Source: Mizuhopecten yessoensis (Eukaryota). From it: a stretch of 64,000 nucleotides of DNA. A program made the position numbers and the translations under genes. The stretch covers positions 1 through 64,000 of the forward strand of contig NW_018408835.1 of assembly GCF_002113885.1 (NCBI RefSeq), written 5' to 3'. Of this stretch, positions 4,300 to 48,720 are shown one piece after another. The notes under the pieces were generated by a model. The model worked only from the letters and a program-made list of their open reading frames with translations. It ran no database searches and was not told the origin of the DNA. Every line of letters begins with the position of its first letter. Within the stretch, counting starts at the first letter, position 1.

Positions 4300-5203
4300 A
4301 TCCATAACTTTCACGTCCGATCAGGGACCTATGTCATTTGTTTGTGCACCAAAGTGATAATACCTAACTATCAGCTATTCACAGGTTGCATTACCAACGG
4401 ATTAGTGATTAGTTTGGCACTCGAAGGGAAATCTGAATATTTTGCAACAAATGTATTCAGGAACATTTTAACGATGCATACGACGACATTAATGATAAAA
4501 AATTACCTGAAGTATACATTTTGCTTCATAAACCAGTCAAGCTTTCCATCCCGTAAATCAGCCCCACCTCGTGAGTGTTATTTAGTGTGATATAAATATA
4601 TATGGTTTATGACAGATGCTAGCATAGCACACATCAATCATTAATTACAGACGGGTCTCGTGTCTGCGCTGTAGACTACGATCTTCCTATGGAAGGCTTC
4701 CGAAATGGAAGTCTTGTCCGCGCAGTCACACAAACACTATAACTTAATGAGATAGATGCTGTTGCATCACGAATTATTCTCATTACCACGTTACTGTCAA
4801 TCAATCGTTTAGCGTGACTGGTAAGTGGACTAGACTTCTGAAAGAGATTTTTGCAGACTTTTTCGCAAGATATATTAACACAATGTTTTTATAGTGACGT
4901 TGAAGAATATGTGATTCGCGGGCTGAAAATAGCACGGTCAAATTGATGGGGGGAATAACTGTCAAACTTCATCGATATATATTAACAAGACAGCACCATA
5001 AATAGGTATATTAGCATTCAACAGACTAAGATTAGCATTTAGGGCATCTAGTCAGGCGTTGTCCTTTATTGGACATATACGTCGTCGCTATATATAAATT
5101 TTATACGACGTCAGCGTTTTCGTTTTTTATAGCTTTACGGCCTGTGATTCATTTAGGGCCAAACAATATTGTTTGTTTGTTCGTTTGGGGTTTAACGTCC
5201 TTG

Positions 5204-8200
5204 CAACAGCCAGTGTCATTTGAGGAGGTGAAGCCTAGGGAGACAACAGCCAGGGTCATTTGAGGACGTGTAGCCTAGGGAGACAACAGTCAGGGTCATT
5301 TGAGGACGAGTAGCCTAGGGAGACAACAGTCAGGGTCATTTGAGGACGTGTAGCCTAGGGAGACAACAGCCAGTGTCATTTGAGGACGAGTAGCCTCGGG
5401 AGACAACAGTCAGGGTCATTTGAGGACAAGTAGCCTAGGGATACAACAGTCAGGGTCATTTGAGAACGTGTAGCCTAGGAAGACAACAGCCAGGGTCATT
5501 TCAGGACGAGTAGCCACGGGAGACAACAGTCAGGGTCATTTCAGGACGAGTAGCCTCGGGAGACAACAGTCAGGGTCATTTCAGGACGTGTAGCCTAGGG
5601 AGACAACAGCCAATGTCATTTGAGGACGTGTAGCCTAGGGAGACAACAGCCAGTGTCACTTGAGGACGAGTAGCCTAGGGAGACAACAGTCAGGGTCATT
5701 TGAGGACGAGTAGCCTAGGGATACAACAGTCAGGGTCATTTGAGGAAGTGTAGCCTAGGAAGACAACAGCCAGGGTCATTTGAGGACGTGTAGCCTAGGG
5801 AGTGCACAGTCAGGGTCATTTCAGGACGAGTAGCCTCAGGAGACAACAGTCAGGGTCATTTCAGGACGTGTAGCCTAGGGAGACAACAGCCAATGTCATT
5901 TGAGGACGAGTAGCCTAGGGAGACAACAGCCAGGGTTATTTGAGGACGAGTAGCCTAGGGAGACAACAGTCAGGGTCATTTGAGGACGAGTAGCCTAGGG
6001 AGACAACAGTCAGAGTCATTTGAGGACGAGTAGTCTAGGGAGACACACCAGCCAGGGTCTTTTGAGGACGAGTAGCCTAGGGAGACACAACAGCCAGGGG
6101 CATTTGAGGACGAGTAGCCTAGGGAGACACACCAACCAGGGTCATTTGAGGACGGGTTGCATAGGGTGACAACAGTCAGGGTCATTTGAGGACGAGTAGC
6201 CTAGGGAGACAACAGTCAGGGTCATTTGAGGACGTGTAGTCTAGGGAGACACAACAGCCAGGGTCATTTGAGGACGAGTAGCCTAGGGAGACACAACAAT
6301 CAGGGTCATTTGAGGACGGGTAGCTTAGGGAGACAACAGTCAGGGTCATTTGAGGACGAGTAGCCTAGGGAGATAACAGCCACGGTCATTTGAGGAGGAG
6401 TAGCCTAGGGAGACACAACAACCAGGGTCATCTGAGGACGAGTAGTCTAGGGAGACAAAACAGCCAGGATCATTTGAGGACGAGTAGCCTAGGGAGACAA
6501 CATCCGGGATCATTTGAGGACGGGTAGCCTAGGGAGACAACAGCCATGGTCGTTTGAGGACGAGTAGTCTAGGGAGACACAACAGCCAGGATCATTTGAG
6601 GACGGGTAGCCTAGGGAGACAACAACCAGGGTCATTGGAGGACGAGTAGCCTGGGAGACGACCGCCAGGGTCATTTGAGGACGAGTAGCCTAAGGAGACA
6701 ACAGCCAGGGTCATTTGAGGACTGGTAGCCTAGGGAGACAACAGTCAGGGTCATTTGAGGACGAGTAGCCTAGGGAGACACAACAACCAGGGTCATTTGA
6801 GGACGGGTAGCTTAGGGAGACAACAGCCAGGGTCATTTGAGGACGAGTAGTCTTGGGAGACACAACAGCCAGGGCCATTTGAGGACGGGTAGCCTAGGGA
6901 GACAACACCCACGGTCATTTGAGGACGAGTAGCCTAGGGAGACAACAGTCAGGGTCATTTGAGGACGAGTAGTCTTGGGAGACACAACAGCCAGGGTCAT
7001 TTGAGGACGGGTAGCCTAGGGAGACACAACAACCAGGGTCATTTGAGGACGAGTAGTCTAGGCAGACACAACAGCCAGGATCATTTGAGGACGGGTAGCC
7101 TAGGGAGACAACGGCCAGGGTCATTTGATGACGAGTAGCCTAGGGAGACAACAGCCAGGGTCATTTGAGGACGAGTAGTCTTGGGAGACACAACAGCCAG
7201 GGTCATTTGAGGACGAGTAGTCTTGGGAGACACAACAGCCAGGGTCATTTGAGGACGGGTAGCTTAGGGAGACAACAGTCAGGGTCATTTGAGGACGAGT
7301 AGCCTAGGGAGACAACATCCGGGAGCATTTGAGGACGGGTAGCCTAGGGAGACAACAGCCACGGGCATTTGAGGACGAGTAGCCTAGGGAGACACACCAA
7401 CCAGGGTCATTTGAGGACGGGTAGCATAGGGTGACAACAGTCAGGGTCATTTGAGGACGTGTAGCCTAGGGAGACAACAGTCAGGGTCATTTGAGGACGT
7501 GTAGTCTAGGGAGACACAACAGCCAGGGTCATTTGAGGACGAGTAGCCTAGGGAGACAACAGCCAGGGTCATTTGACTACGAGTAGCCTAGGGAGACAAC
7601 AGTCAGGGTAATTTGAGGACGAGTAGTCTAGGGAGACACAACAGCCAGGGTCATTTGAGGAAGGGTCATTTGAGGACGAGTAGCCCAGGGAGACAACAGT
7701 CAGGGGTATTTGAGGACGAGTAGCCTAGGGCGACAACAGCCACGGTCATTTGAGGACGAGTAGCCTATGGAAGACAACAGTCAGGGCCATTTAAGGACGT
7801 GTAGCCTAGGAAGACAACAGCCAGGGTCATTTGAGGACGCGTAGCCCAGGGAGACAACAGTCAGGGTTATTTGAGGACGAGTAGCCTAGGGCGACAACAG
7901 CCACGGTCATTTGAGGACGAGTAGCCTTGGGATACAACAGTCAGGGTCTTTTGAGAACGTGTAGCATAGTGAGACAACAGCCAGGGTCTTTTGAGGACTG
8001 GTAGCCTAGGGAGACACAACAGCCAGGATAATTTGAGGACGGTTAGCCTAGGGAGACAACGGCCAGGGTCATTTGATGACGAGTAGCCTAGGGAGACACA
8101 CCAAGCCGGGTCATTTGAGGACGGGTAGCATAGGGAGACAACAGTCAGGGACATTTGAGGACGTGTAGCCTAGGGAGACAACAGTCAGGGTAATTTGAGG

Positions 8201-9053
8201 ACGAGTAGTCTGGGGAGACACAACAGCCAGGGTCATTGGAGGACGAGTAGTCTAGGGAGACAAAACAGCCAGGGTCATTTGAGGACGAGTAGCCCAGGGA
8301 GACAACAGTCAGGGTTATTTGAGGACGAGTAGCCTAGGGATACAACAGTCAGGGTCATTTGAGAACGTGTAGCATAGTGAGACAACAGCCAGGGTCATTT
8401 GAGGACTGGTAGCCTAGGGAGACACAACAGCCAGGGTCATTTGAGGACGAGTAGTCTAGGGAGACACAACAGCCAGGGTCATTTGAGGACGAGTAGCCTA
8501 GGGAGACAACAGCCAGGGTCATTTGAGGACGAGTAGCCCAGGGAGACAACAGCCAGTGTCATTTGAGGACGAGTAGTCTAGGGAGACACAACAGCCAGGG
8601 TCATTGGAGGACGAGTAGCCCAGGGAGACACCAGCCAGTGTCATTTGAGGACGAGTAGTCTAGGGAGTCAAAACAGCGAGGATCGTTTGAGGACGAGTAG
8701 CCTATGGAAACACAACAACCAGGGACATTTGAGGACGAGTAGCCAAGGGAGACAACAGTGGGAGACAACAGTCAGGGTCATTTGAGGACGTGTAGTCTAG
8801 GGAGACACAACATCCAGGGTCATTTGAGGACGGGTAGTCTAGGGAGACACAACAGCCAGGATAATTTGAGGACGGTTAGCCTAGGGAGACAACAACCAGG
8901 GTCATTTGATGACGAGTAGCCTAGGGAGACAACAGCCAGGGTTATTTGAGAACGTGTAGCATAGGGAGACAACAGCCAGGGTCATTTGAGGACTGGTAGC
9001 CTAGGGAGACACAACAGCCAGGGTCATTTGAGGACGAGTAGCCTAGGGAGACA
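5204..9053. repeat. Satellite array 1, 40/42-bp monomer, ~94 copies, embedded in one copy of a short retro-element (family B)
   Basis: Monomer cagggtcatttgaggacgagtagcctagggagac(ac)aacagc/t. Left flank is the element tail (gtttgtttg...ggggtttaacgtccttgc); right flank is the element body (ctgcctgaaacagaaagg). Confidence 0.98.
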
Positions 9054-10586
9054 CTGCCTGAAACAGAAAGGAGAAAAAAAGAAAGAAGACAAAAGCCTGC
9101 CCTAATACAATATGATGTTTTGAGGTAATACTTTGAAATATGTAATTGTTTTAATAATTGAAATATACTTCACTTCATGTTGAAAAGGAACTGAAAAGGA
9201 ACCAGAATAGCTAACTGACTAAAGCACATCCATGAACGGAAGGGTAAAGGACAAAAAAACATCCATAGCACACACATTGTTAGTATGTATCATAGGATAT
9301 CGTAAATATATACAGATAGTAAATAATCATATAGCAATGTTACAGGAACTGTAACAGACTTCAAATAATAACGCGGAAAAAGAGATAGAAGAGAAAGAAA
9401 ACTGAGCTATTAGTTTTGCAATGACGTCTGCATCTGTTTTCACCGAGAAAGGTTTGTCGAATGCATGACAAAAAAGGCTGGTCTTCCTTTCGACAAATCC
9501 AACGTGTGCAATATACGTCAAGCATATACGGTGAAGCAAGAGAACAAGCTGCTCTCGGAGATCACAAACTTAATGTTGCAAAAATCTAAAAAAAAAAAAA
9601 AAAGTGAAGAAAAAGAGTTTCATTCGCAATATTCCAATTTAAGTCGTTTCCTCGTTTCCATGGTTACCAGGAAGAGGAAAACAGTTTCAGAAAAGAAATA
9701 TTAGAACCATGATAACATTATCGCTGAATCACAAAACCGCAATAATCATTATAGTGTAATGGATAAAAGCGATTGATCCAGCGACGACATTTTTATTACA
9801 ATCAAGGATGCATATCAGTAAATAAAATTTTCTTGATTTAATTATATGCTGGGATGCAGTTTCCTCCTCGTCGACTCTACCAATGCAATGCATTGCATCG
9901 TCATTAATTTTCTCACCCTACAGCAACTCATGTAAAAGATACAACACAATTAGGCCTTAGTGACAGTTGGATCCATTAGCACAGAACTCTAAATAAATAC
10001 TTTTTACCGTTTCTGTACGCCGTATATAATTACTTTTGCCTGTATTTTGCAGTATCCTTCGGCAAGCATAGCTTTACTGATCCAAAATTTTGTGTAATTA
10101 ACGAAGATTTTAAAATGATATCATTGCTTTCGTATTTATTACAGCTGTAGCTGCATCTATTTATTTGTTTTGTTATATTAACAAAGAAGTACAATTACGA
10201 TTCTGAATCAGCGATGCGGTTTTCTTTAACATTAAGATGCACTTATTATGTAATGTTTGGATAGCACTAATCACAATAGTTTTGCCATACTCAAATATTC
10301 GACGTTATGAAAGAGTTATAGATTGTTTCTGTTTGGTACCGTCTTTAGGGCAAGGTTATTTAAATATTGGGTCACGACCTTGCGTGATCGGGCACATTTG
10401 TCTCTATTTTGTTTAGAACAAGTCTGAGCCTCGTCCTACTTTACCTGCACCCAACGTGTATTTATTCAAGGAGGTGTATTTTCCTTTTGTTCAACTGTGC
10501 TTTTAGTTGGAGACTGTTTTGTCAGGATTTGAGCTTTTACAAAATGCAACCCTTAAACTCCAATAATATTTTTTTTAGACTTGTTA

Positions 10587-10772
10587 TCCCGTCTTTTCGT
10601 ATTGCAGAGTTATCTTCTCTTGTGAGCAGGTATTGATTGTTACGTCATTGGTTTGTGAGAGTATCGTCATTAATTTTTGTGAAAACGACATAATTTTCTC
10701 ACACAAACCAATGACGTAACAATCAATACCTGATCACAAGAGAAGATAACTCTACAATTTGCAAGGACGGAA
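10587..10772 (-). mobile_element. 186-bp MITE with long TIRs and TA flanks, copy 1 (inverted relative to copies 2 and 3)
   Basis: ~60-bp TIRs tcccgtcttttcgtattgcagagttatcttctctt... / ...agaagataactctacaatttgcaaggacggaa; TA on both sides. Confidence 0.9.
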
Positions 10773-10908
10773 TATCATTATGGAAATATACTTGGGTAAG
10801 CTGAACGCCAGTCAAAAATAGGAAGTGTTTCGTGATAAGCTATGCATGGAGACTGGTCCTCGCACAATACATCGTCGTCTCGGCGGTTTTTGTCTATAGC
10901 AAAGACAT

Positions 10909-11694
10909 TATTTCCGAATGATATGCTACGTAATGTATGGTGTATTTCCGATTGATATGTTACATGATGTATGGTATATTTCCGAATGATATGCTACGTA
11001 ATGTAAGGTGTATTTCCGAATGATATGTTACGTAATGTATGGTGTATTTCCGAATGATATGTTACGTAATGTATGGTGTATTTCCGAATGATATGTTACG
11101 TAATGTATGGTGTATTTCCGAATGATATGTTACGTAATGTATGGTGTATTTCCGAATGATATGTTACGTAATGTATGGTGTATTTCCGAATGATATGTTA
11201 CGTAATGTATGGTGTATTTCCGAATGATATGTTACGTAATGTATGGTGTATTTCCGATTGATATGTTACGTAATGTATGGTGTATTTCCGAATGATATGT
11301 CACGTAATGTATGGTGTATATTTCCGAATGATATGTTACGTATTGTATGGTGTATTTCCGAATGATATGTCACGTAATGTATGGTGTATATTTCCGAATG
11401 ATATACTACGTAATGTATGGTGTATTTCCGAATGATATGCTACGTAATGTATGGTGTATTTCCGAATGATATGCTACGTAATGCATGGTGTATTTCCGAG
11501 TGATATATTACGTAATGTATGCTATATTTCCGAATGATATGGTACGTACTGTAAGGTTTATTTCCGAATGATATGCTACGTAATGTATGGTGTATTACCG
11601 AATGATATGTTACGTAATGTATGTTGTATTTCCGAATGATATGTCACGTAATGTATGGTGTATTTCCGATTGATATCCTACGTAATGTATGGTG
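10909..11694. repeat. 34-bp minisatellite, ~23 copies
   Basis: Unit tatttccgaatgatatgttacgtaatgtatggtg; near-identical central copies and more diverged edges. Confidence 0.97.
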
Positions 11695-12089
11695 CACGCA
11701 TTGAATCCAATTATATTGCCAATGTGACATTACAAAATTTCGAATAAGTGATTTGAAATCAGTAAAATGATGTTTGAAATAGGTGGTAGTAGTAAAGTCG
11801 CTCTGACTCCAGGATTATGTTTGGTATCCCAAAGTTGCTCGACGCCAGCAGTATCCAATTTACTTTACTATGTAATAATGTTAATATTTTACTTTTTGAA
11901 ATATATTTTCATTTGTTTTTGTTGCAAAGGCTTAGTAAATCATGGATGGAATTCGAATAGGTAATTTGTTTCGGTAGATTATGTTATTTAATGTGTTCCA
12001 GTGCGGGATAACGAGCATTTTCTTCTGCAGACGATGTTAATACATCATTTGGAAGCAGGCATCCAATAGTCGAGTACTTCTGCGGGATT

Positions 12090-12300
12090 GTTTTGGTTTG
12101 TTTGTGTTTGTATTGTTTTACGGCAAATCGAACATGCAGGTCATTTAAGGCCAACAACATTGTAAAACTAGACATTCAGAAAAATGAATACACCAAACTA
12201 GAAATGAAATGGGTTAAAAGATGATAACATACATCAACATGGAACGAACTGGTTGTGAAGTACAGCCTATCTTAATTTATAGATCGAGTGAGTGTAATAA
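12090..12300 (-). mobile_element. LINE-type 3' tail fragment
   Basis: gtttgtttgtgtttgtattgttttacggcaaatcgaacatgcaggtcatttaaggccaa resembles the tails at 2248 and 29485. Confidence 0.45.
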
Positions 12301-12367
12301 ATCATATATTGATTGAACAGACAGTACAATTTTGTATGAAATAAACTTTTCATAGACCTTACATCAT

Positions 12368-12558
12368 ATTCTGGCCGGAAATTAAGCATACACTTTATAC
12401 AACGCACAATAATTATATTTCATCATAATAAAGTCAATTTGAAATCAGTAAATGCTAAATCGCTAAATTCTGACCGGAAATTAAGCATACACTTTATACA
12501 ACACACAACAATTATATTTCATCATAATAAAGCCAATTTGAAATCAGTAAATGTTAAT
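12368..12558. repeat. 99-bp tandem duplication
   Basis: attctg.ccggaaattaagcatacactttatacaac...tttgaaatcagtaaatg starts at both 12368 and 12467. Confidence 0.92.
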
Positions 12559-13379
12559 TCTTATAATTGGATACATTTTACGCAGAATCCGGATTGCCGT
12601 CATCTACCAAAATGCACAGTCTTACAGTACAACATATGTCATATGTTTGGTTGAAATCAGAGCCTTCAATCATCAAATGTGCTGTACAATATGGTTGGTC
12701 TTGCAAAATGTAAAATGTAACTATTTGTGACCTAGATGCGGGCAATCTTATGAGGAAATATTATCATAAAAATCATAGCAAATACAGGTAAAGTCATAAA
12801 TGTAAAACTCGTGACGGTGTACATCTTTTCAAGAAACTTGCCAAGAATAAAACACAAACCAACACAAACATCTATAAAACAAATCGCTGAAAGTAAATAC
12901 TGAAAAAGTGTACGAGTTGTCGATACTGTATTAATGAACTTGTAGAATATTTCCAAAAAATAAGTCAGACGCTTCTTTCTGGCAGACTTGTCATCGACTT
13001 CCAAAGGTTACTGCAGAATACTATACGCCTCGACATCGTCACAACATTGATATTATACTTGTTGTTATGATGTCCTATTCGTTTAAAAGGGCTCTTATGT
13101 CTAACTCTTCGTAGAATACTATCGGTATTCAATGTAAAACATGATAAAGACAGAGTAATAGATTACAGGGATTTGACAGGCCAGCTGATGTCAGAATGTT
13201 CTGTATGTGAAACAGTAACGTTCACAGCTATACCAAAAACATCGTTTGGAAACTCTAAATGTGCTCTTTGTTCCTAATGGTGTCTCCGATCTTCCTGTTG
13301 GGGTTGATAAACTCGACACAGATATTAAACATGGATGACTATAGACAATTATGGTTCTTTTGTATGCTTACAATTGATA

Positions 13380-13565
13380 TTCCGTCTTTGCGTGATACAG
13401 AGTTATCTTCTCTTGGGAGCAGGTATTGATTGTTACGTCATTGGTTTGTGTGAAAAAATTACGTCGTTTTCTCAAAAATTGATGACGTTACTCTCACAAA
13501 CAAGTGACGTAACAATCAATCCCTGCTCCCAAGGGAAGATAACTCTGCAATACGCAAAGACGGAT
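13380..13565 (+). mobile_element. 186-bp MITE, copy 2
   Basis: TIRs ttccgtctttgcgt...gttacgtca / tgacgtaac...acgcaaagacggat, TA flanks; nearly identical to 34178-34363. Confidence 0.93.
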
Positions 13566-13676
13566 TATTACACACAGTATAACTAAATATATATATTATT
13601 ATACCTCTTTACTTGAGTTAGTTGTAATGTCATATCCTGTTTTAAATCCTTTCCTATCTTTCCTGTCTTTTTTCTT

Positions 13677-13838
13677 TTATATCTACTTTCTGTTTATATC
13701 TACTTTCTGTTTATATCTACTTTCTGTTTATATCTACTTTCTGTTATATCTACTTTCTGTTTATGGTGATATTTCCCAAGGCACGTGTCCCTATTTGACC
13801 CTGGCTGCTGAAGGAAGTTTAACCCCAAGCAAACAAAA
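13677..13838 (+). repeat. 17-bp minisatellite (5 copies) inside a family-B element copy
   Basis: (ttatatctactttctgt)5 runs into ggtgatatttcccaaggcacgtgtccctatttgaccctggctgctgaaggaagtttaaccccaagcaaacaaa. Confidence 0.85.
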
Positions 13839-14784
13839 TTATGAAAGATGGCGTTTGTATTGCATCCTAAAAGACGATAACGTGTAACCCATGCTGTACC
13901 AAAGCTGTACTTCCTGTCTGCGTCTGTGTCCCGAGGGTAAAACTTTTCGATTTGTGTCGCTGCCATCTTGGCCGGAGATATAGTTTTAGACAATGGTCGA
14001 AACACACTGTGTGTGTATATATAGACCATTTTTAGCTAACGACTTGCTTAAATAATCAGATTTCAAATTGTGGATTTTGGTGATTAAACAAGTATGCGTC
14101 GATATACAGTCTGTAAATGGAAACGTTTAATAGCTTACTTAACTCATATTTTGATGGTATTTCTTTGACAGCAATAAACCAAATTAGATCTGCCTATAAC
14201 GAGAGTCAGATTAATCTCCACGGTCGAACCCATTTTTTTTTACACAATATGACAAATCATGAGACTGATACAGTATCGTTTGCTTGAAAATTATATTAAC
14301 GGATAATTATCGCTTCATCTCGTCCTCGGGCGAAAATTGCCATGGTCATTACGTTAGCGTTGTACAGATGAGGCAAGGCCATTAAAGATTGATATGTTTT
14401 TATGTTGAATGACTATGTGTAGTGCTGTATATCAAATGACACCCCTACAGGTCGGGGATCGCAAAACTGATGTGACTGGTGGGACCCCTCCCCTTTGCAG
14501 AATTAGGGATTTTAATTTGTGCGCTCTGTTTTGGGACACCGAAAGTGGCCAAAATAAATCTGCTGCACCCATTGCAGCATTTGGGAACTATATATTTATA
14601 TTTAGTTCTAACTACTACCTTTATCGTAATTTATTTTTACCGATTTCATGCCAGGCTACTCACAAAAGATGGTCATAAGCACGGAATAGCGAGATGTCGT
14701 TCCTCTGCGTTTAATTTGTATCAAATAATAGGTGAAGACAATGAAATTCGAGCACTATGCAGTAGACGATGTTTTGATGTTAGA

Positions 14785-14951
14785 TTTACGCCATCGAAAC
14801 CAATATCTTACTTCGAGGTGCCCGAGTTTTTTCCGCTTTTCAGGGTGCAAATTATTCGAGTTATCTTTACGAAGATAAAGAAAAGGTTTGGCCTGAACCA
14901 AAGAAATATTCGAGATAAACGGGATCTTCGATCTAACGAGGTTCGACTGTA
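14785..14951. mobile_element. Degenerate Tc1/mariner-pogo-type MITE end
   Basis: Ends in cgaggttcgactg+TA with repeated internal ttcgag motifs; left TIR not clear. Confidence 0.45.
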
Positions 14952-14995
14952 TCTTTATTTCCTAAAGCCTTGATCGGCATTACCGCACCTATGCC

Positions 14996-15368
14996 ATGGC
15001 TGTAATGTTGAACGTTTATCCAAGTGAGAAAAGCGATGGGTTCTGTCTCCAGGCCGGGATATACCAATGTCCTTGAAACTGGTGGTTGTTATTCACTACT
15101 TAATATTCAGCATTAGGCAAATACCAACAACAGGTTCACCCGTTGTCGGTATGATATGAACGGACGGAGTGCTGTTCTTAGTGCCTTCGGCATGGTATTT
15201 TGATTGAGGTAGTATTTTGAAGTCGGCATTAGATTCGCGCTATTAGAAGTAGGCAAAAACACAAACATACACTATTTCCGGCATACATACAAACATACAC
15301 ACATGCACGCATACACAACACACATTGAGGCCCGTCCTTAAATGACATTTGCTGTTAAATGGACGTTA
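14996..15368 (+). mobile_element. tRNA-derived SINE, family A, near full length
   Basis: tRNA-like head with gggttctgtctcc, body gtcggcattagattcgcgctat, CA-rich tract and tail gtccttaaatgacatttgctgttaaatggacgtta; about ten homologues in the window. Confidence 0.85.
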
Positions 15369-15704
15369 TGCGAGTCATATTTTCATTTAGTTTGATACAA
15401 CAACGCTATGCAGTCTTTCTCAATATCTGTTTCGATGAAGGTCAAGATAGAATATGTAAATATTTTGAAAGTATTTGCGTGAAATACGAAAGGCAAGCAT
15501 AATTGCTTAAACACCTTAATAATGAAGCACAGTACGTTTGAAAACAGCTAGTTTATACTACTATACATACAATTAAAACTCATTTAATATTTTACCGTTT
15601 TTTCCCAAACATGTAACACATATTTTTCATAATTCGACGTCACCCCAAACTCGAATCATGGTATCAAACCAGTCTAAGGAAACTTAAAATAAATAAAAAA
15701 ATAT

Positions 15705-16143
15705 ACAAGAATTCCACAGGAGTGGATGTGTCGCCTGCTCAGCGCAAAAGTGTTTTGGCTCGAGTTATCGCATAAACAAGGAAACATTAACAGCATAAAC
15801 GATGAACAGCGTTGCTATGTCAAGTGTGATATACCAAAATGCGGAAAGATGAATCTCGACAAAAAACCACCTTAATATATGTTGAACATTACTTGCATTT
15901 ACTACACAATGCCCTTATTTGGCAATACAAGGGCATTACTCCATAAAAATGCATGTAAACTCCTGAAATACGAACTCGTCCGAGCTATTTTGTATGCAAT
16001 TAGTGAACCAAGTTTGAGTTTAATCAATTGAAGGGAACCTAAGTTATCGCACGGAAACCTTGTTTCGAACGACGCCATCGACGACGACGAAGCCGGCAAC
16101 GTAATAGTTATATGTCGCCTCGCGTTGCAGGCGACACAAAAAA
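15705..16143 (-). mobile_element. Non-autonomous Helentron-associated (HINE/DINE-like) element
   Basis: Subterminal IR tgtgtcgcctgc (15727-38) / gcaggcgacaca (16127-38), terminal hairpin tccacaggagtgga, (gac)n microsatellite and A-run end. Confidence 0.8.
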
Positions 16144-16619
16144 TGGTCGTTTGAATTCAAGAGAGATGATCAGAATTCGAAACATCCAAGATATTAAGAT
16201 TTACATTAGTCGATGGTTTTGCTATTCTGACGCCAAATGTCGGAATTTAATCTGAATGTCATAAAAATTCATATAAATTGATTTGAAGATGCAGTCATAT
16301 GCTTTGTTATTAGTTTTAGAATTTTTCTTTATTTGCAGAGCAAGTTATATCGAATATTTGATTATTTGGTTTTACGCTAATTCTTCCCTTGCCTCAACAT
16401 ATATATTTTCGAATGATGTTTTTAAATATCTCGGGAATACCTCTAATTGATTGTGTAGCAATTTAAGAAGTTGTTGATACCCCTGCGGGCTATGCTGGAT
16501 AGCCACAACCCCACCAAAGATCGAGGGGGAGCGTCCAGACGCATCAAAATCCACTCGTTCAATTAACAAATGCATTCTCCTGTTGGTCATTGTGGTACAC
16601 ATTAGCGACAATGATATGT

Positions 16620-16743
16620 GTTACACCCCCTCTTGCGACAGTTAGAATTACATCTTAAACCGTCCTATTTTTCTCTTCCCTTGTCAACGCCTCATTTCCG
16701 CTGTATGTCTGCACGTTCGACATAAGAGGAAGGCATTCGGTTG
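16620..16743 (+). mobile_element. Degenerate leader plus head of family-A SINE
   Basis: cccttgtcaacgcctcattt...acgttcgacataagaggaaggcattcggtt resembles the reverse complement of 56278-56345. Confidence 0.45.
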
Positions 16744-16754
16744 GTATGCCATGC

Positions 16755-18020
16755 TTTTGTCTCGCCTGCAACGGATGTCGAGAAGGCGTCCGGGACTTAG
16801 GTGTTACTTTTCCGGCGGCGACGGCGGCGTCAACGTTAAGATTTCGCGTTTAGCTCTGTTTCTCAGAAAGTATAAGTGCTAGATCAACCAAACTTTGACC
16901 ATACATGCGTCTTATATAATTCATCTCACTCCATGCATCAGTCGCTGAATGTGCTAAATTTCGCGGTCCAGTGATTTTGACAGCATCTTCATCAATGCTA
17001 AGTTTTTGCGTTTAGCTGTGTGTTTTATGCTGTATCTCAAAAAGCAAAAAGTTAAAGTGTTGGACTATATTAACTTGGACTGTAGTTGTTTCAGTCGTAG
17101 CGCATCTCAAACCATGCATGATATGTTGAATGTGGCCTACATTTCTCGGTCTAGTGACTTTCACAGCATCTTCCTCAATGTAAAGTGTTTGCATTTAGCT
17201 GTGTGTTATAGGCTGTATCTCACATTTAAAGTGTTGGACTAAACTTAGATTGTAAGTTGGAATGATCTTTACCATCTAAGGGTTACAACGTCAATATGTA
17301 AACGTAATCAGACAACAAACATGGCCGCAGTATACTGGCTTTTGATTGGTCGAAATTCAGATATTGTTCGATTTCGCTCACATTTTTTAGGTATGTGTAT
17401 TTTGTCACTTCTGATTTGACAAAATGACCGCCTGATACTGGCTTCTGATTGGTCTTAATTCAGTTGTTATTCAATTTCAGTCAAATTTGGTATGTACATG
17501 TATTTTGGCACTGCAAACTCAACCATGACATTCATTTTATTATTTCACAAAATGGCCGCTGTATATTGGCTTCTGATTGGTCGAGACTCTGTTATTGTTC
17601 GATTTCACTAAAAAAATCGGTTTCTAGGTGTATTTTCGCACTATAAACTCAACCATGGCATCCGTGTTCTGATGTGACAAGTTTGTCGTTGTATACTGGC
17701 TTCTGCATGATTGGTCGAAATTCACAAATATTTTCAGTTCGCTCAAATTTGGTATGTATGTGTATTATGTCACTGCGACGTCCGTTCTCCTATTTATATT
17801 TGGTTTTCCGAACGCGGGGGTAGTTTGGGAGACATCTGTAATGGCCGGCTCCCATTAAAACTACCACTTGTTTCTTTATACACCCATGTTAGTGTATTGC
17901 CAAACTTGTTTATAAAATGTAAAATTCCGAAACTTCGGCTCAAACTTACAATGCTTGACACATTGAATCTGATGCTCAAAGCGGGGACAGGCGAGACATC
18001 TTATTACGCGTAATTCTTGT
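16755..18020 (+). mobile_element. HINE-like element with internal tandem repeats
   Basis: Subterminal IR tgtctcgcctg (16758-68) / caggcgagaca (17988-98), (ggc)n microsatellite, 3' palindrome attacgcgtaat; internal ~180-bp duplication and four ~100-130-bp tactggcttctgattggtc repeats. Confidence 0.85.
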
Positions 18021-18214
18021 CTGGGTCTGGTTTATGATATTTAGTTATATAAAACGTCAAAGAGTCTCTCCGTTATCGATGGTTTTTATATAACCGTAGT
18101 TGTTGGTGATGATGAATACGAATACAAAGGTTAGGTGTTAGTATTGACGGTATACGGTACCGTTGTCATTTCTATATACTTATGTTCATAAAAAAGTAAA
18201 CAGTGTAAGAGGTC

Positions 18215-18534
18215 CAAATCTATTTGAAAAGTCAAGCGTTTTGATGGATATGAAATGGGAGAGAAAATGTGTTCCCTTCACGACGGAAATCCAGTGTTTC
18301 TCAAGAAATATGACCCGGCACTAAAGAAGACTCCTAGACGATAACAGGAATCACGTGTGTCCATAGACAATTCATCATATCTGTTCAGATATAAATCTTC
18401 ACCAAGGAATTCCTCTACCCTTGCACTTTACGTCAATTGGTGTATTGTTGGAGTGTCTTTGGTCCCTATGACGGATAATACTATCAAGCGGTTCCGCTGT
18501 CAGATAATATTAATCTACCGACATACCAATCCAT
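18215..18534 (-). pseudogene. Possible highly decayed paralog of the 53.3-kb secreted-protein gene
   Basis: Fragments MDWYVGRLIL and FLGEDLYL...DSCYRLGVFF; 11-mer caagcgttttg shared with 53354-64. Weak. Confidence 0.2.
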
Positions 18535-18743
18535 CACTGCCGTGTGGGTACGATACGGTGTATAGCGGTACGAAGTGCGCTGTTTTCTAGCTTTTTTCGA
18601 CTAGGGTTTTATAAATATAAAGAAGGTTTTCACGTAGAATGGGGCCTTTCAGGGCCGATATATGACCTTGTCCTTCTGATGTTCCTTATGTTACAAGGAC
18701 GTGTACTTCAGTCTAGTCTATTTGAAGATTTAACGTAATTGAA

Positions 18744-21700
18744 ACAGGTAAGGTCATGTGACGAAGGGTGCCTAGGGAGAGACAGGTAAGCGCATTTGAC
18801 AACTGGTGCCTAAGGAGAGACAGGTAAGGTCATGTGGCAACGGGTGCATAGGGAGAGACAGGTAAGGTCATGTGACAAAGGTTGCCTAAGGAGAGACAGG
18901 TAAGGTCATGCGACAACGGGTGCCTAGGGAGAGATAGGTAAGGTCATGTGACGACGGGTGCCTAGGGAGAGACATTTACGGCCATGTGACAACGGGTGCC
19001 TAAGGAGAGACAGGTAAGGTCATGCGACAACGGGAGCCTAGGGAGAGACAGGTAAGGCCATGTGACAGAGACAGACAGGTAAGGTCATGTGACGACGGGG
19101 GCCTAGGGAGAGACATTTAAGGTCATGTGACAACGGGTGCCTAGGGGGAGACAGGTAAGGTCATGCGACAACGGGAGCCTAGGGAGAGACAGGTAAGGTC
19201 ATGTGGCAACGGGTGCATAGGGAGAGACAGGTAACGTCATGTGACAACGGGAGCCTAGGGAGAGACAGGTAAGGCCATGTGACAACGGGTGCCTAGGGAG
19301 AGCCAGGTAAGGCCATTTGACAACGGGTGCCTAGGGAGAGACAGGTGCGGTCACTAGGGATAGACATTTAAGGTCATGTGACAACTCTTGCCTAAGGAGA
19401 GACAGGAAGGTCATGTAACGACGGGGGCCTAGGGAGACAGGGAAGGTCATGCGACAACGGGGGCCTAGGGAGAGACAGGTAAGGTCATGTGGCAACGGGT
19501 GCATAGGGACAGACAGGTAAGGTCATGTGACAAAGGTTGCCTAAGGAGAGACAGGTAAGGTCATGCGACAACGGGAGCCTAGGGAGAGACAGGTAAGGCC
19601 ATGTGACAAAGGTTGCCTAGGGAGAGACAAGTAAGGTCATGTGACAGAGGTTGCCTAGGGAGAGACAGTTAAGGTCATGTTACAAAGGTTGCCTAGGGAG
19701 AGACAGGTAAGGCCATGTGACAGAGACAGACAGGTAAGGTCATGTGACGACGGGTGCCTAGGGAGAGACAGTTAAGGTCATGTTACAAAGGTTGCCTAGG
19801 GAGAGACAGGTAAGGCCATGTGACAACGGGTGCCTAGGGAGAGCCAGGTAAGGTCATGTGACAACGGGTGCCTAGGGGGAGACAGGTAAGGTCATGCGAC
19901 AACGGGAGCCTAGGGAGAGACAGGTAAGGTCATGTGGCAACGGGTGCATAGGGAGAGACAGGTAAGGTCATGTGACAACGGGTGCCTAGGGGGAGACAGG
20001 TAAGGTCATGCGACAACGGGAGCCTAGGGAGAGACAGGTAAGGCCATGTGACAACGGGTGCCTAGAGACAGACAGGTAAGGTCATGTGACGACGGGGGCC
20101 TAGGGAGACAGGGAAGGTCATGCGACAACGGGGGCCTAGGGAGAGACAGGTAAGGTCATGTGGCAACGGGTGCCTAGGGAGAGAGAGGTAAGGTCATGTG
20201 ACGGCGGGTACCTAGAGAGAGATAGGTAAGGTCACGTGACAACGGGTGCCTAGGGAGAGACAGGTGCGGTCACTAGGGATAGACATTTAAGGTCATGTGA
20301 CAACTCTTGCCTAAGGAGAGACAGGAAGGTCATGTAACGACGGGGGCCTAGGGAGACAGGGAAGGTCATGCGACAACGGGGGCCTAGGGAGAGACAGGTA
20401 AGGTCATGTCACAACGGTCGTCTAGAGAGACAGGTAAGGTCATGCGACAACGGGAGCCTAGGGAGAGACAGGTAAGGTCATGTGGCAACTGGTGCATAGG
20501 GAGAGACAGGGAAGCTCATGTAACAAAGTTTGCCTAGGGAGAGACAGGTAAGGTCATGTGAAAACGGGTGCATAGGGAGATACAGGTAAGGTCATGTGAC
20601 AACGGGTGCCTAGGGGGAGACAGGTAAGGCCATGTGACAACGGGTGCCTAGGGAGAGAGAGGTAAGGTCATGTGACGACGGGTACCTAGAGAGAGATAGG
20701 TAAGGTCAAGTGACAACGGGTGCCTAGGGAGAGACAGGTAAGGCAATATGAAAACGGGTGCCTAGGGAGAGACAGGTAAGGTTATGTGACAACTGGTGCC
20801 TAGGGAGAGACAGGTGGGGTCATGTGACAACGGGTGCATAGGGAGAAACAGGTAAGTTCATGTGACAACGGTTGCCTAGGGAGAGACAGTTAAGGTCATG
20901 TGACAACGGCTGCCTAGGGAGAGACAGTTAAGGTCATGTGACAACGGGTGCCTAGGGAGAGACAAGTAAGGCCATGTGACACCGGGTGCCTAGGGAGAGA
21001 CATGTAAGGCCATGTGACAACGGGTGCGTAGAGACAGACAGGTAAGGTCATGTGACTACGGGTGCCTAGGGAGAGACATGTAAGGCCATGTGACAACGGG
21101 TGCGTAGAGACAGACAGGTAAGGTCATGTGACTACGGGTGCCTAGGGAGAGACAAGTAAGGCCATGTGACACCGGGTGCCTAGGGAGAGACAGGCAAGGT
21201 CGTGTGACAATGGGTGCCTAGGGAGAGACAGGCAAGGTCGTGTGACAACGGATGCCTAGGGTGAGACAGGTAAGGTCATGGGACAACGGGTGCCTAGGGA
21301 GACAGGTGAGGTCATGGGACAACGGGTGCCTAGGGAGAGTCAGGTAAGGTCATGTGACAACAGGTGCCGAGGGAGAGACGAGAGACAGGTAAGGCAATAT
21401 GACAACGGGTGCCTAGGGAGGGACAGGTAAGGTCATGTGACAGCGGGTGCTTAGGGAGAAACAGGTCATGTAACGACGGGTGCCTAGGGAAACAGGTAAG
21501 GTTATGCCACAACGGGTGCCTAGGGAGAGTCAGGTAAGGTCATGTGACAACGGTTGCCTAAGGAGAGACAGGTAAGGTCATGCGACGACGGGTGCCTAGG
21601 GAGACAGGTGAGGTCATGGGACAACGGGTGCCTAGGGAGAGAGAGGTAAGGTCATGTGCCGACGGGTACCTAGAGAGAGACAGGCAAGGTCAAGTGACAA

Positions 21701-23707
21701 CGGGCGCCTAGGGAGAGACAGGTAAGGACATGTGACGACGGGTGCCTAGGGAGAGACAGGCAAGGTCGTGTGACAATGGGTGCCTAGGGAGAGACAGGCA
21801 AGGTCGTGTGACAACGGATGCCTAGGGAGATACAGGTAAGGTCATGTGACAACGGTTGCCTAAGGAGAGACAGGCAAGGTCATGTGACGACGGGTGCCCA
21901 GGGAGAGACATTTAAGGTCATGTGACAACGGTGGCCTAAGGAGAGACAGGAAGGGCATGTAACGACGGGTGCCTAGGGAAACAGGTAAGGTTATGCCACA
22001 ACGGGTGCCTAGGGAGAGTCAGGTAAGGTCATGTGACAACGGGTGCCTAAGGGGAGACAGGTAAGGTCATGCGACGACGGGTGCCTAGGGAGAGACATTT
22101 AAGGTCATGTGACAACGGTGGCCTAAGGAGAGACAGGAAGGGCATGTAACGACGGGTGCCTAGGGAAACAGGTAAGGTTATGCCACAACGGGTGCCTAGG
22201 GAGAGAGAGGTAAGGTCATGTGACGACGGGTACCTAGAGAGAGACAGGTAAGGTCAAGTGACAACGGGTGCCTAGGGAGAGACAGGTAAGGTTATGTGAC
22301 AACTGGTGCCTAGGGAAAGACAGGTAGGGTCATGTGACAACGGGTGCATAGGGAGAAACAGGTAAGTTAATGTGACAACGGTTGCCTAGGGAGAGACAGT
22401 TAAGGTCATGTGACAACGGGTGCCTAGGGAGAGACAGGTGCGGTCATGTGACGACGGGTACCTAGAGAGAGACAGGTAAGTTCAAGTGACAACGGGGGCC
22501 TAGGGAGAGACAGGTAAGGCCATGTGACAACGGGTGCCTAGGGAGAGACAGGTGCGGTCATGTGACGACGGGTACCTAGAGAGAGACAGGTAAGTTCAAG
22601 TGACAACGGGTGCCTAGGGAGAGACAGGTAAGGTCATGTGACAACGGGTGCCTAAGGAGAGACAGGTAAGGTCATGCGACAACGGTTGCCTTCACAGAGA
22701 CAGGTAAGGTCATGTGACAGCGGGTGCTTAGGGAGAAACAGGTACATGTAAGGTCATGTGACGAAGGGTGCCTAGGTAGAAACAGGTAAGGTCATGTGAC
22801 AACGGGTGCCTTGGGAGAAACAGGTAAGGTCATGTGACAACGGGTGCCTAGGGAGAGACAGTTAAGGTCATGTGACAACGGGTGCCTAGGGAGAGACAGT
22901 TAAGGTCATGTGACAACGGGTGCCTAGGGAGAGACAGGTACGGTTATGTGACGACGGTTGCCTAAGGAGAGACAGGTAAGGCCATGTGACGAAGGGTGTC
23001 TAGGGAGAGACAGGTAAGGTCATGTGAAAACGGGTGCATAGGGAGAGACAGGTAAGGTCATGTGACAACGGGTGCCTAGGGAGAGACAGTTAAGGTCATG
23101 TGACAACGGGTGCCTAGGGAGAGACAGTTAAGGTCATGTGACAACGGGTGCCTAGAGAGAGACAGGTAAGGTCATGTGACAACGGGTGCATAGGGAGAGA
23201 CAGGTAAGGTCATGCGACAACGGTTGCCTTCACAGAGACAGGTAAGGCCATGAGACAGCGGGTGCTTAGGGAGAAACAGGTACATGTAAGGTCATGTGAC
23301 GAAGGGTGCCTTGGTAGAAACAGGTAAGGTCATGTGACAACGGGTGCCTAGGGAGAGACAGTTAAGGTCATGTGACAACGGGTGCCTAGGGAGAGAGAGG
23401 TAAGGTCATGTGACGACGGGTGCCTAGGGAGAGACAGGTAAGGTCATTCGACAACGGGTGCCTAGGGAGAGACAGGTAAGGTCATTCAACAACGGGTGCC
23501 TAGGGAGAGACAGGTAAGGTCATGTGACAACAGGTGCCTAGGGAGAGACAGGTAAGGTCATATGACAACGAGTGCCTAGGGAGAGACAGGCAAGGTCGTG
23601 TGACAATGGGTGCCTAGGGAGAGACAGGTAAGGTCATGTTACAACGAGTGCCTAGGGAGAGACAGGTAAGGTCATGTGACAACGGGTGCCTAGGGAGAAA
23701 CAGGTAA
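18744..23707. repeat. Satellite array 2, 38-bp monomer, ~130 copies, homologous to array 1
   Basis: Monomer caggtaaggtcatgtgacaacgggtgcctagggagaga; preceded by a diverged element tail tttgaagatttaacgtaattgaa. Confidence 0.98.
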
Positions 23708-23936
23708 TGTAAGTAGATAGAAACAAATACTGATTAAGGTTCAAGGGGCTGAACGTAGCGTTCCTGTCGGTATTTCAAATCCTAAAACGTAGCACGTTAA
23801 TATATCGCTGCATATGAAGAAAAGCAAAAAGAAGAAAACAGGTATGAGATATTTTAACGAAGAAGTTTTGGTCGGATTAGAATAACAACTTTTTATACGC
23901 CAATCAAAATATTTTAATGCTATTGTTTTCTTTTAT

Positions 23937-26192: not shown

Positions 26193-26335
26193 GTCGGTTG
26201 ATCTAGGGGATAACACATTCGCCTTTCACCAAGGCGTCCGGGGTTCGATTCCCCGGGTACTCCTGCTTCTCCCACATTAAGACATACCGTGTATTTACAT
26301 CCGGGCCAACAAGAATGATAAGTAGAAGTTGTAAA
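26193..26335 (+). mobile_element. Internally deleted tRNA-headed V-domain-type SINE
   Basis: A box-like ttgatctagggg, B box ggttcgattccc, then gggtactcctgcttctcccaca (V-SINE-like motif). Confidence 0.65.
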
Positions 26336-39944: not shown

Positions 39945-40199
39945 NNNNNNNNNNNNNNNNNNNNNNNNNNNNNNNNNNNNNNNNNNNNNNNNNNNNNNNN
40001 NNNNNNNNNNNNNNNNNNNNNNNNNNNNNNNNNNNNNNNNNNNNNNNNNNNNNNNNNNNNNNNNNNNNNNNNNNNNNNNNNNNNNNNNNNNNNNNNNNNN
40101 NNNNNNNNNNNNNNNNNNNNNNNNNNNNNNNNNNNNNNNNNNNNNNNNNNNNNNNNNNNNNNNNNNNNNNNNNNNNNNNNNNNNNNNNNNNNNNNNNNN
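39945..40199. other. Assembly gap (255 N)
   Basis: Run of N. Confidence 1.
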
Positions 40200-40807
40200 G
40201 CTTATTAAAACGACTGTATTTTCAACAAATGGCAAATAAATTGACAATATTTATGGTTTACCTGCATAATTGTCTAGTAAAGATTGTGTGTGTCTCCAAC
40301 ACTTTGGATGATTGGGACGATTCAATATTGTAAAAGCATTTTCTTGTCATTACAAGCCTGCCATTTTATAGCAAACAGTTTCGTTCCGGAGCTTGAGTTC
40401 GAACTAAAGTCTGCTCTTGGGCAGTCTCAGCTTTTTGTGCTCAGCTTGAGGCGTTGAGCTGAGTTTTTAGTTTGTGATAACGAATTACGGACGCTGAGCT
40501 TGAGTTCTTGAGTTCGGACTCAAATCTCAGCTTAAGTACGTTTGTGATACCGAAGCCAGGTCCTTATATCGATGTTATATCTGTTTAGATAGAATATCTA
40601 TATTTAACGCCCTTATATGTGTGTTCATATTGGTCAATTGTTAGAATCAAGTGATCACGTGTGGTGCCATGATTTATATTCTATATTATCGTATGAATAG
40701 TCATATAACCGACGACACGACACTCCAAATTTGCAAATCTAAAAACCACTTCTTTTACTCTTAATTTCAACTGAAATTTAAATAAATTTAAATGGGACTT
40801 ATATCGC

Positions 40808-40892
40808 GTCTTTTCTCTCTTTTTCTCTCTGTCGACGGTGTCCCCTTAAGCACCGTTTGCCATATGACCTTCGCTGTTGCAAGAAAAATAAA
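40808..40892 (+). mobile_element. Unexpanded, diverged family-B element copy
   Basis: tcttttctctctgtcgacggtgtccccttaagcaccgtttgccatatgaccttcgctgttgcaag. Confidence 0.55.
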
Positions 40893-41028
40893 TCTTTTAC
40901 TGAATCATACAACGCATGGACAGGGTCAATAGTTTCCATATCCAAGTATTACAAATGCAATCCAAAGCGCTCTGTCCATCTGGTTGTCCTCGGTCAGCCC
41001 TACCTAGGTCCATCCCTATCCACTTCTG

Positions 41029-45984: not shown

Positions 45985-48720
45985 TTTACGTTCCGTCACA
46001 ATCCAGTTTGACATTAAGTCAAAATTGTTAAACTGCATCCTTGATAAATCATTATGACTGAAATATATTTCTAGTTTCAATAAACTGCAAAGCATTTATT
46101 CTACAAGATAATTTCATTGCATACTATATTGCCAGTTAAACTTGATACATGCTGTTTCCGTTAAGAGATATCTTCAACCTCGTCTTCAATATCGATGATG
46201 TTATCAGATATGTATCCATCATTTTCACTATCACGCTTGTCATGTGTAATAACCAAGACGTTTTAGTGATACAATCGATGTCTGAGGAACGCTTGATTCT
46301 TCTAATCTGATTGATGTATCGCGTCTTGTATTAACATATCCTCAATATGTCCCGAATCTTGTAGTTTTCAGATCTTCATGATCGACAGGAATACACTCAG
46401 ATATGATAAATCGCGGTAGAAGCAACATTTTGATAAAGTACAAAAGCTTGTATCCTGGATATCTTTGTTGGACGTCATATACCTGTATAAACGACAGTCA
46501 GCGAAAATTCACATAGGTCCTCGGACTTTGTAGATAGCCAGGCGTTTTGTCCGGACAAATTTATTCAAGATTGCGCGAAGCAGGATAGTGGATTTGTAGT
46601 TCCGCGCAATGAAAGAATATCATCTGCGACTTCAAAACAAATGGCAAGGTTCTCGTATCCAAATGTGATCATATCCCAGCGTTACGGCTTGTTTATATTC
46701 ATGTTCTGAAGACAGAAAGTTTTTGTACAACTAATTAATTCAACATATTTCAAAATGTATTCAGATGATTGTCATTGACAAGGTTTTGTTCAGGACATGA
46801 CATATTTCAAAGTCGATAGGTTAGAGTCATACCATTTTTACCAATGATATCATATCCCCATTATTGGTTCATCTCAAAGTCAGATTTGTTGACTGGGAAT
46901 ATCAAATAGGCTTTCGTTCGGTTACTCAAAGTACCAAACCTCCGTTTGCTTAGAAACGATGTTTTAACATGAAAAAAACCCCAAAGTGGTCCATTCTGAT
47001 TTCTGTGTGCGCAATAAGGGACTAATCTTCAGCAGGAGCCAGCTACTAGTCTAAAACACCATCCATCAAGTTGATGATAAAAAGGAGACCCGTAAGCCAC
47101 AGATAAATGCTAATATTCCGCACTCGATCATTGGAATTACTTGTAATACTATCGGAAGCTACAGCGGCCATTTTAATCCCAGACGTCGGTCTATAATATG
47201 GCATATAGCCCCCATGCTTCACACCCAGCCGTAGAACGGCCACCTGATACGCTGTATACAAGGGTGGTCTATTTCAATAATGTTTAGATTTGTAGACATG
47301 CAATCTTAATATGAAACTCTGCTTTGTTTTGATTAAACTGCAAATGTTCAAATTTCTTCTCAGAAAGTTACCTTGTTATCTGTCTTATTTCCTCTCTGTT
47401 TCAGGCGGTGTCTCCCTAGGCATATATCCTCCCATAACCTTGACCAAGCAAAAATGCAAACCTTGGTTTTGAAAGATGTCATTTTCCTAATTATTTTGAA
47501 ACGAACTAATCAATTATGAAATTAACACGTTTTCGAGCAAAGGAGAGACAAAGACGAACATCACATTATGTATTCATAATTGGGGATTTTCTTATGCTTC
47601 TTTTGCTAAGAGTTAATTAAAGACAGCAAAATGTACTTGCTCCCCCGTTTGCAACACTGATGTAAGCTCCCAAAGGGTTTGATGCTATATCGCTTGCTGT
47701 AACGTTTAAAATGATGGCATCGAGTATGTCATGAACTACAGTCTGATTGTGTAGCAAGTATTATAGTATCGCCACTGCCGTACATATTCCCTTGAGCAAT
47801 TCTATAGGAGGTAATCAACCAAGTGTAGAGTGAGTTCTTAGTCTGTCTCGATTATAATTGCCGGGATATATCTACACTCACGACAACGGCTTTCAAATTA
47901 TAAACTAGATGGATGGTTTGATAAATATTAACAAATCGATTCTATATTCCTCATTAAAGATAATCACTAAAACATTTATCTTTCGGTTTGATGCACATGG
48001 AAACCCCCTTCAGCTCTCAAGACTGATTTGTTATTCGCCAATTATTCAACATTGTGTACACAGCATAACTAGTTTCAACACAATAGGCATACATTATCAT
48101 CACCTTAGCATAAGAAAAGAACGCACAAATGTCTCTTTTCAACAATGTATCGCCAAATATAACGTGAATGCGATTATTTTTATTATTTGAAAACTGTTTA
48201 ACTGTGTTTTCCGCGCTATTTGTTTGTTTTGGATTTTGCGTATTTGGAGTAGCCAAGATAAAATGACGATGATGACGGAGCAAATCTGGAGCCGCTTCAA
48301 AGTGTCATTTCATTAAATAAGATAATCTATTATGCAAAATATTTGTATCTGTCAAAGTGTTTCCAATACTGTGTTTTGGCGTTTCCACAATACGTTTTTT
48401 GGTTCTGTTACAACGCTGAGTTCGTATTTAGTCAATCTATATTGCCGGTTTCATTTTTACTTGTATATGATCATGCTGCTGATGCATTGTTCTTTAGAAA
48501 TATCTGTAGTTAAACAAATACAAAAAATGTTATCTCGGAACAGAAACCATTCAGCAGGTCTCCTAAGTGGAGCTTCAGATATTTTGCAAGGACAAAGACA
48601 CGTTTTGACGGCACGCGTTTGTCAATATATAGATATGCATAAGGTGGTCCAATTTTTGCCTTTCCATTTTTCAAGTCGATTTTAACATTTAATGAGAAGC
48701 ATTATGTCATCAGGTCCCTA
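45985..48720 (-). pseudogene. Possible long decayed coding relic (STAND-NTPase/ankyrin-like flavour)
   Basis: High-complexity stretch with fragments QTRAVKTCL, VLKLVMLC, RDRLRT, LLHNQTVV and PLYTAYQVAVLRLGVKHG; no P-loop found; many stops. Confidence 0.22.
47385..47445 (+). mobile_element. Unexpanded family-B fragment
   Basis: tctgtttcaggcggtgtctccctaggc matches the reverse complement of the array-1 right junction (9041-9067) with one mismatch. Confidence 0.8.

Follow-up and report, generated by a model that had tools for sequence, protein, structure and literature searches.

The window analysed here is a 64,000-bp stretch of the Mizuhopecten yessoensis genome (contig NW_018408835.1, positions 1 to 64,000), and it contains two multi-kilobase tandem arrays, referred to as arrays 1 and 2 (Table 1), whose repeat units correspond to a sub-part of one short interspersed element (SINE). 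As delimited with Tandem Repeats Finder and the raw sequence, the arrays have periods of 40 and 38 bp respectively, contain no N and are both G-skewed. Array 1 tiles into 94 units plus a 3-nt stub (61 units of 40 bp and 29 of 42 bp) and array 2 into 132 units plus a 9-nt stub (110 units of 38 bp). As an original prediction made from the sequence of the window had proposed, the two align monomer to monomer: their consensus monomers match at 30 of 40 columns with a score of 44, against a mean of 17.1 (standard deviation 3.5, maximum 29) in 500 shuffles. They also start at the same position after the element tail, 19 bases into a shared tail motif (5191-5209 and 18730-18748). The same prediction described each array as homogenised to its own consensus; the consensus is indeed private to each array, but homogenisation is partial, with 77/94 and 90/132 units distinct and mean pairwise unit differences of 4.4/40 columns in array 1 and 6.0/38 columns in array 2. 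The array 1 monomer that it quoted, with acgggtag, is a minority variant (19/93 units, compared with 55/93 for acgagtag).

To define the parent element, the scallop's own genome was queried with the array 1 exit (57 matches from 40 scored candidates), and a family majority sequence was built from the alignment of 45 non-redundant loci out of 51. The resulting element is about 400 bp long, lies here on the minus strand and consists of a duplicated head module, a CT-rich stretch, a 39-bp unit, a short stem arm and (CAAA)n, the family thus carrying 3' terminal short tandem repeats and a tail of the type found in long interspersed elements (LINEs). The array repeat unit straddles the fusion of the CT-rich part and the tail; array 1 matches the family majority at 37/40 columns and array 2 at only 30/40 or 31/39. 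By eye, the Nimb-like head of about 68 bp and the CT-rich part match the head of the scallop MESC SINE (PMC4758252, supplementary Fig. S2; the MESC SINE and not Nimb-17 itself is the comparator), and the tail resembles that of BivaV-SINE1 (PMC4824008, supplement). With the LP-SINEs and pectinoid MESC SINE (PMC4758252) and with BivaV-SINE1 (PMC4824008), then, the element has in common the head, the CT-rich stretch, the 3' tail, the (CAAA)n end and perhaps some target-site duplications. It differs from the LP/MESC SINE in its duplicated head module, in the direct fusion of its CT-rich part to the tail and in that neither a tRNA nor a MESC segment could be found. An Rfam scan of seven loci detected no tRNA head or ribozyme, only two chance-level snoRNA matches, and the 45-locus majority contains no tRNA-derived head, MESC segment or conserved central domain. 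Flanking repeats of at least 7 bp were present in 7 of 23 rows (duplicates included and without a chance control), three of them 10-12 bp long, while none was clear at arrays 1 and 2. On these features the parent is classed as a non-autonomous retroelement, an LP-type SINE of the scallop-type bivalve kind with the tail of scallop V/MESC SINEs, and its sequence places it outside the tRNA-headed Meta/MESC and V SINE classes. Its partner may be a Nimb-type LINE, judging from what PMC11481361 says of BivaV-SINE1.

Arraying is widespread in this SINE family. Exact patterns for the two common junctions between units gave 632 (41-type) and 516 (39-type) matches genome-wide, 1,148 in all, with none for reversed controls. 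About 50 other arrays were examined (34 + 11 + 7, many chosen by junction patterns), most of which have their own entry and exit where these lie within the fetched stretch. The smallest have 2 units and the largest, which reaches the end of its contig (C574), has at least 312 over 12.7 kb; several arrays lie on the same unplaced contigs, e.g. C1138 and C779. The genome-wide count of copies with and without arrays that the original prediction had called for was approached, with less bias, by a search using the body only, in which 1,457 candidates were found, 40 scored and 30 loci fetched; after exclusion of the query locus and three loci without a 3' end, 26 copies remained, comprising 7 multimers, 18 single-unit copies (4 called by eye; two near-identical) and 1 with the unit lost. 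Arrays 1 and 2 are a local sample of a family-wide habit, in which about one copy in four is arrayed, and not an exceptional pair, so their presence together in one window is far less surprising.

Copies with arrays do not make up a subfamily of their own. In a tree built from 64 element bodies (34 multi-unit and 30 single-unit; duplicates, window loci, gapped loci and bodies of <150 or >500 bp excluded) the array label requires 24 changes against a shuffled mean of 21.4, although this tree is near-star, with 3 of 61 inner branches supported, and has little power; one of the supported pairs joins a single copy with a 5-unit copy. Sister SINEs with a homologous tail behave differently, yielding 6,004 tail matches and 1 match to the equivalent junction, a control that rests on one tight pattern and would miss other registers. 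The sole sister-SINE array found is a 4-unit array in a V-type SINE (L145:1400-1600), and its end falls at the corresponding point of the stem, immediately ahead of the 3' arm.

Within the window, both arrays retain the contexts in which they arose. That array 1 exits into the element body, as first noted, is borne out by the CT-rich remnant at its entry, and array 2 also keeps a body remnant of 13 bp, which the earlier account had not included. The unexpanded copy at 47396 that had been put forward as the match to this exit is decayed and tail-less and has no special kinship to array 1 (83% over 52 bp, compared with 90% over 51 bp for the unrelated locus L008), being one of 22 exact entry matches genome-wide. 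The consensus variants are private, in that all 25 genome-wide matches for array 1 and all 50 for array 2 fall inside the array concerned; a relaxed array 2 pattern, used as a check for an older subfamily, gave 9 matches in array 2 and 1 single copy elsewhere. Relative to the family majority, array 1 differs at 3/40 columns and array 2 at 8/39, with no derived state in common. The junctions also differ, array 1 having the family 39/41 type and array 2 one of 38 bp, in agreement with the sequence of its decayed ends, and the flanks show no match beyond the element.

Both arrays are real, and contigs from independent sequencing runs bear out their tandem joints. The unique flank is present in sixteen public runs from five studies, of which one may be the source. 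Contigs of 4/4 runs contain 40-bp head-to-tail joints at the right edge of array 1 and 33-38-bp joints at array 2, and contigs anchored in unique flank cross three of the four array edges, namely the right edge of array 1 and both edges of array 2. No contig spans either array, so that lengths and unit order rest on the assembly, and there is a real if minor chance that these are materially off. Neither locus showed an allele with a single unit in these contigs, which do not suffice to demonstrate its absence and which covered array 1 at its right edge. Elsewhere in the window, an N gap (39945-40198) and a single N in a poly-G run at about 49355 show that the scaffold is gap-joined, and contigs of 3/4 runs join 25697 to 24178 at single-copy depth, a form not found in the window.

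Two ways in which the pair might be less than two independent expansions can be weighed on these data. Gap filling in a fragmented assembly (82,659 contigs), which could have created the arrays or their multi-kilobase lengths, is compatible with the lack of spanning contigs and with another array (L071, G000:C3777) in which a run of some 37 majority-type units shows no differences and the two ends are rich in variants. The many distinct units with private variants, the head-to-tail joints in contigs of every one of the four runs and the edges joined to unique flanks speak against it, and we regard it as very improbable, the assembly-artefact objection foreseen in the original prediction being answered for the joints and three edges and not for the spans. 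The identical-unit run itself may be a gap-fill artefact or a recent burst, and gap filling may distort some arrays. The other possibility, which the original prediction had left beside parallel expansion from two insertions, is that a single local duplication took place long ago and that the two copies were then homogenised separately. The arrays do lie on the same strand, 10 kb apart and in the same phase at the tail, but that phase is family-wide. Neither shared derived junctions nor long homologous flanks, the evidence that would have pointed to a single origin, were found for arrays 1 and 2; since they share no derived position, have private consensuses and lie in unmatched flanks, an ancient duplication is unsupported, and we consider it largely refuted and hardly credible. 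Arrays 1 and 2 likely grew separately, in place, from two SINE insertions.

The point at which arrays begin is nearly fixed at 39/41 bp across the family: in the least biased set the 41 junction dominates in 13 of 19 arrays, the 39 type in 4, and 2 are mixed. Exact sequence shared at these registers amounts to 2 bases (39) and 1 base (41), with a gapped 7-of-10 match, by eye, for the 39 junction. The best direct repeat in the element, 5 bases at a 48-bp register, has no array-junction match, and a 36-bp register has 1; one copy (L076) carries a deletion fitting the 48 register. Longest microhomology was accordingly rejected as a predictor of the junction. The suggestion that microhomology seeded the arrays fits the 39/40-bp junction, as a gapped match with 2 exact bases, and neither the commoner 41/42 junction (1 exact base) nor the 38-bp junction of array 2. 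A fixed junction on 1-2 exact bases, together with the absence of matches for the 48-bp repeat, means that plain microhomology is insufficient. The family majority folds into two adjacent predicted hairpins, the first, of 7 predicted bp, lying upstream of the tail, and the unit begins within the first hairpin and stops short of the arm that closes the second, immediately before the 3' arm of the tail stem. A G-quadruplex driver was also considered and is unsupported (the maximum G4Hunter score is 0.84 in the family unit and 1.0 in array 1, and only 1% of array 2 windows reach 1.2). Short inverted templated pieces occur inside or at the end of units at two loci (L089 and L096), which suggests fold-back template switches at the upstream hairpin.

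Subsequent growth appears to have been local and at the DNA level, because units are closer within loci (divergence 0.094) than between them (0.156), 21 of 33 arrays carry a private majority change, and array 2 contains 4 repeated blocks, each of 3-4 variant units, where shuffles gave 1 at most. We favour, as the probable account, independent in-place growth from separate LP-type SINE insertions, each begun by an early DNA-level slip in a copy whose unit was intact, guided by structure and a weak gapped repeat. A SINE would first have been inserted, 5'-truncated, by a Nimb-type LINE enzyme. The first duplication then involves almost always the same segment, the 39-41 bases that immediately precede the terminal stem, and would likely be a slip of DNA, guided as above, in copies with a little-mutated unit. 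Private mutations are seen to have spread through the arrays, presumably by local unequal exchange, gene conversion or slippage of single units or blocks. The arrays are likely a neutral by-product, and no function is proposed for them. Several observations weigh against this account, along with the low power of the body tree and the narrowness of the sister-SINE control. The breakpoints are established, the cause of seeding only inferred; the hairpins are modest as DNA (-4.1 and -5.1 kcal/mol), and folding of three natural copies gave z = 0.81, 0.29 and -3.03, two of the three being no better than shuffles. The block signal of array 1 (1 against a shuffle maximum of 2) is not above chance. 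Six small arrays (L002, L015, L029, L069, L081, L105) have no majority change common to their units, as expected if seeds form at insertion. Finally, with body divergence the same in both groups, array units are nearer the family majority than single copies are (0.082 vs 0.121, 19 vs 25 loci, p=0.017), a difference not expected from neutral local turnover.

Small arrays whose units have no change in common, the fixed junction that bypasses a better repeat and the high array frequency among copies lend themselves to another explanation, in which seeds are made during retrotransposition: the LINE reverse transcriptase would stall at the upstream hairpin, re-prime inside the tail stem and write 2 to several units, with DNA-level growth following. 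The hairpins are stronger as RNA (-8.4 and -9.8 kcal/mol), and the sister-family array ends at the same stem position. In three other small arrays (L005, L017, L035), however, every unit carries the same private changes, the junction of array 2 is of another type that agrees with its own decayed ends, and sister SINEs, presumed to use the same enzyme and having the same tail, almost never form arrays; we rate this explanation as unlikely, though the main rival. Dominance of the 41 junction in the least biased set could alternatively mean that a source gene was already a dimer or multimer with that junction and spread it, most arrays then tracing to one seeding event. Against such a source stand the array-bearing copies, which are unclustered on the body tree, with a supported pair uniting a single and a 5-unit copy, the different junction of array 2, and the small arrays, across which, by eye, no variants specific to unit position recur; we consider it improbable. 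A DNA-level slip at the fixed spot, followed by growth in place, remains the reading we prefer.

Beyond the arrays, the window holds further copies and remnants of the element (Table 1). The single-monomer copies reported earlier at 13765, 30718 and 40830 are all present, and further single units lie at 54129 and 30807-30841. The copy with its unit at 13765 has expanded part of its own CT-rich body into a 17-bp repeat of 5.6 copies (13671-13764), a second array-forming spot in this SINE. The patch at the edge of the third satellite contains an exact 26-mer of an array 2 variant, is bridged with small indels by contigs of 2/4 runs, and resembles a templated insertion from break repair.

Table 1. 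Arrays 1 and 2 and other remnants of the SINE family in the window.
Feature	Position	Strand	Remarks
SINE 3' end belonging to array 1, with tail-stem 3' arm and terminal repeats like (CAAA)n	5169..5203	-	From sequence; 0.06 from family majority tail
Array 1	5204..9054	-	94 units of 40/42 bp; family 39/41 junction plus 1-bp insertion; locus-private consensus; tandem joints in contigs of 4/4 runs
CT-rich body remnant of 5'-truncated SINE copy, entry of array 1	9055..9094	-	Unique-flank contigs start within last unit
Single-unit SINE copy with body expanded as 17-bp repeat (13671-13764)	13647..13837	+	
Decayed SINE tail, end of array 2	18725..18743	-	Flank contig reaches two units in runs X1 and X12; X2 has a loose end that agrees
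Array 2	18744..23707	-	132 units, most of 38 bp; junction of its own; consensus private to this locus; some blocks of 3-4 units recur; head-to-tail joints in contigs of 4/4 runs
13-bp body remnant, entry of array 2 (approximate limits)	23712..23724	-	Sequence compared with family majority
Patch: 26 bp of array 2 variant plus 22 bp from 24156-24177	27589..27638	+	Edge of third, unrelated satellite
Two successive short SINE 3' ends, one unit each	30715..30841	-	Second unit 30807-30841
Decayed single-unit copy	40805..40900	+	
Decayed copy: body and unit entry, no recognisable tail	47373..47445	+	
Decayed single-unit copy, absent from original prediction	54120..54185	+	Unit at 54129

Other repeats in the window include that third satellite (27644-29333), which is AT-rich, built of 25-bp and 10-bp modules and unrelated to the SINE unit; a run of 21 units of 19 bp without a single difference (33257-33654), within the CA-rich portion of a MESC-type SINE, which is of very recent origin or else was produced by the assembly; a 34-bp minisatellite (10909-11694) of 23 copies with 92% matches; and two inverted sister-SINE tails (1206-1456) that form an imperfect palindrome of about 250 bp. 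By eye, 56003-56472 resembles the scallop LP/MESC SINE (PMC4758252), and 51855-52200, 49850-50060 and 26200-26330 resemble BivaCORE-SINE2, BivaV-SINE1 and BivaV-SINE2 respectively (PMC4824008).

Satellites derived from SINEs are known in squamate reptiles (sSat1-3; PMC10702118) and in a limpet (PcH-sat, 179 bp, pericentromeric; PMC11121367), and minisatellites derived from Alu and B1, together with the Haber-Louis model of short direct repeats, have been reviewed (PMC3389668, PMC6947457). The family described here belongs among these, with head-to-tail arrays, at least four middle units, terminal units continuing into the SINE, and many loci; each array keeps a private consensus, in place of the genome-wide concerted evolution of classical satellite DNA. 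Like sSat1-3 as described in PMC10702118, the arrays consist of tandem SINE parts whose terminal units run into the SINE, with few to hundreds of units at many loci and incomplete homogenisation. Unlike them, they have units of 38-42 bp (70-290 nt there) and a parent with a LINE-type head (a tRNA head there), they usually keep both SINE ends (a minor variant there), and the long ones are locus-private, whereas long sSats are reported to be homogeneous between loci too. Alu/B1 minisatellites were likewise born inside SINE copies and locally expanded, but here about a quarter of sampled copies are arrayed, all at one spot, and in place of the 5-10-bp flanking direct repeats of the Haber-Louis model there are 1-2 exact bases, a 5-bp repeat going unused (comparisons with PMC3389668 and PMC6947457). 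As in bivalve tandem SINEs (PMC11481361) and PcH-sat, mollusc SINE sequence has become tandem; the former are multimers of whole SINEs or large parts (2-15 units, filter at least 150 bp), in contrast to a 40-bp tail unit at dispersed loci. No mention of tail arrays was found in the available portions of PMC4758252 and PMC4824008, nor anything on this SINE family in those of PMC5874043, and we found no account of its arrays in the literature searched; Repbase, Dfam and the SINE library of PMC11481361, which lay outside that search, may already hold the element. The kind of structure is thus already known, while the SINE family, the array rate, the fixed low-homology junction and the built-in control appear to be new.

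How minisatellites start is still an open question, and in one survey 6% of transposon-derived repeats could be accounted for by the standard models (PMC3389668). The present family combines many independent arrays, of 2 to >300 units, that grew from one ancestral unit and keep both birth contexts, with sister SINEs that have the same tail and almost never array, so that seeding and growth become separately testable. It is also conceivable, though we think it rather unlikely, that the family is a minisatellite dispenser, in which a pair of neighbouring RNA hairpins makes the LINE reverse transcriptase rewrite one and the same 39/41-nt segment during insertion, so that a quarter of copies are born as arrays that may later exceed 10 kb. 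If true, minisatellites would here originate in a structure-programmed manner coupled to retrotransposition, and a single genome would contain both dozens to hundreds of natural replicates and a negative control with the same tail. Short SINE-derived tandems in bivalves would escape the filters of PMC11481361, a gap which that paper names and the present family fills; the arrays would also supply single-locus variable number tandem repeat markers.

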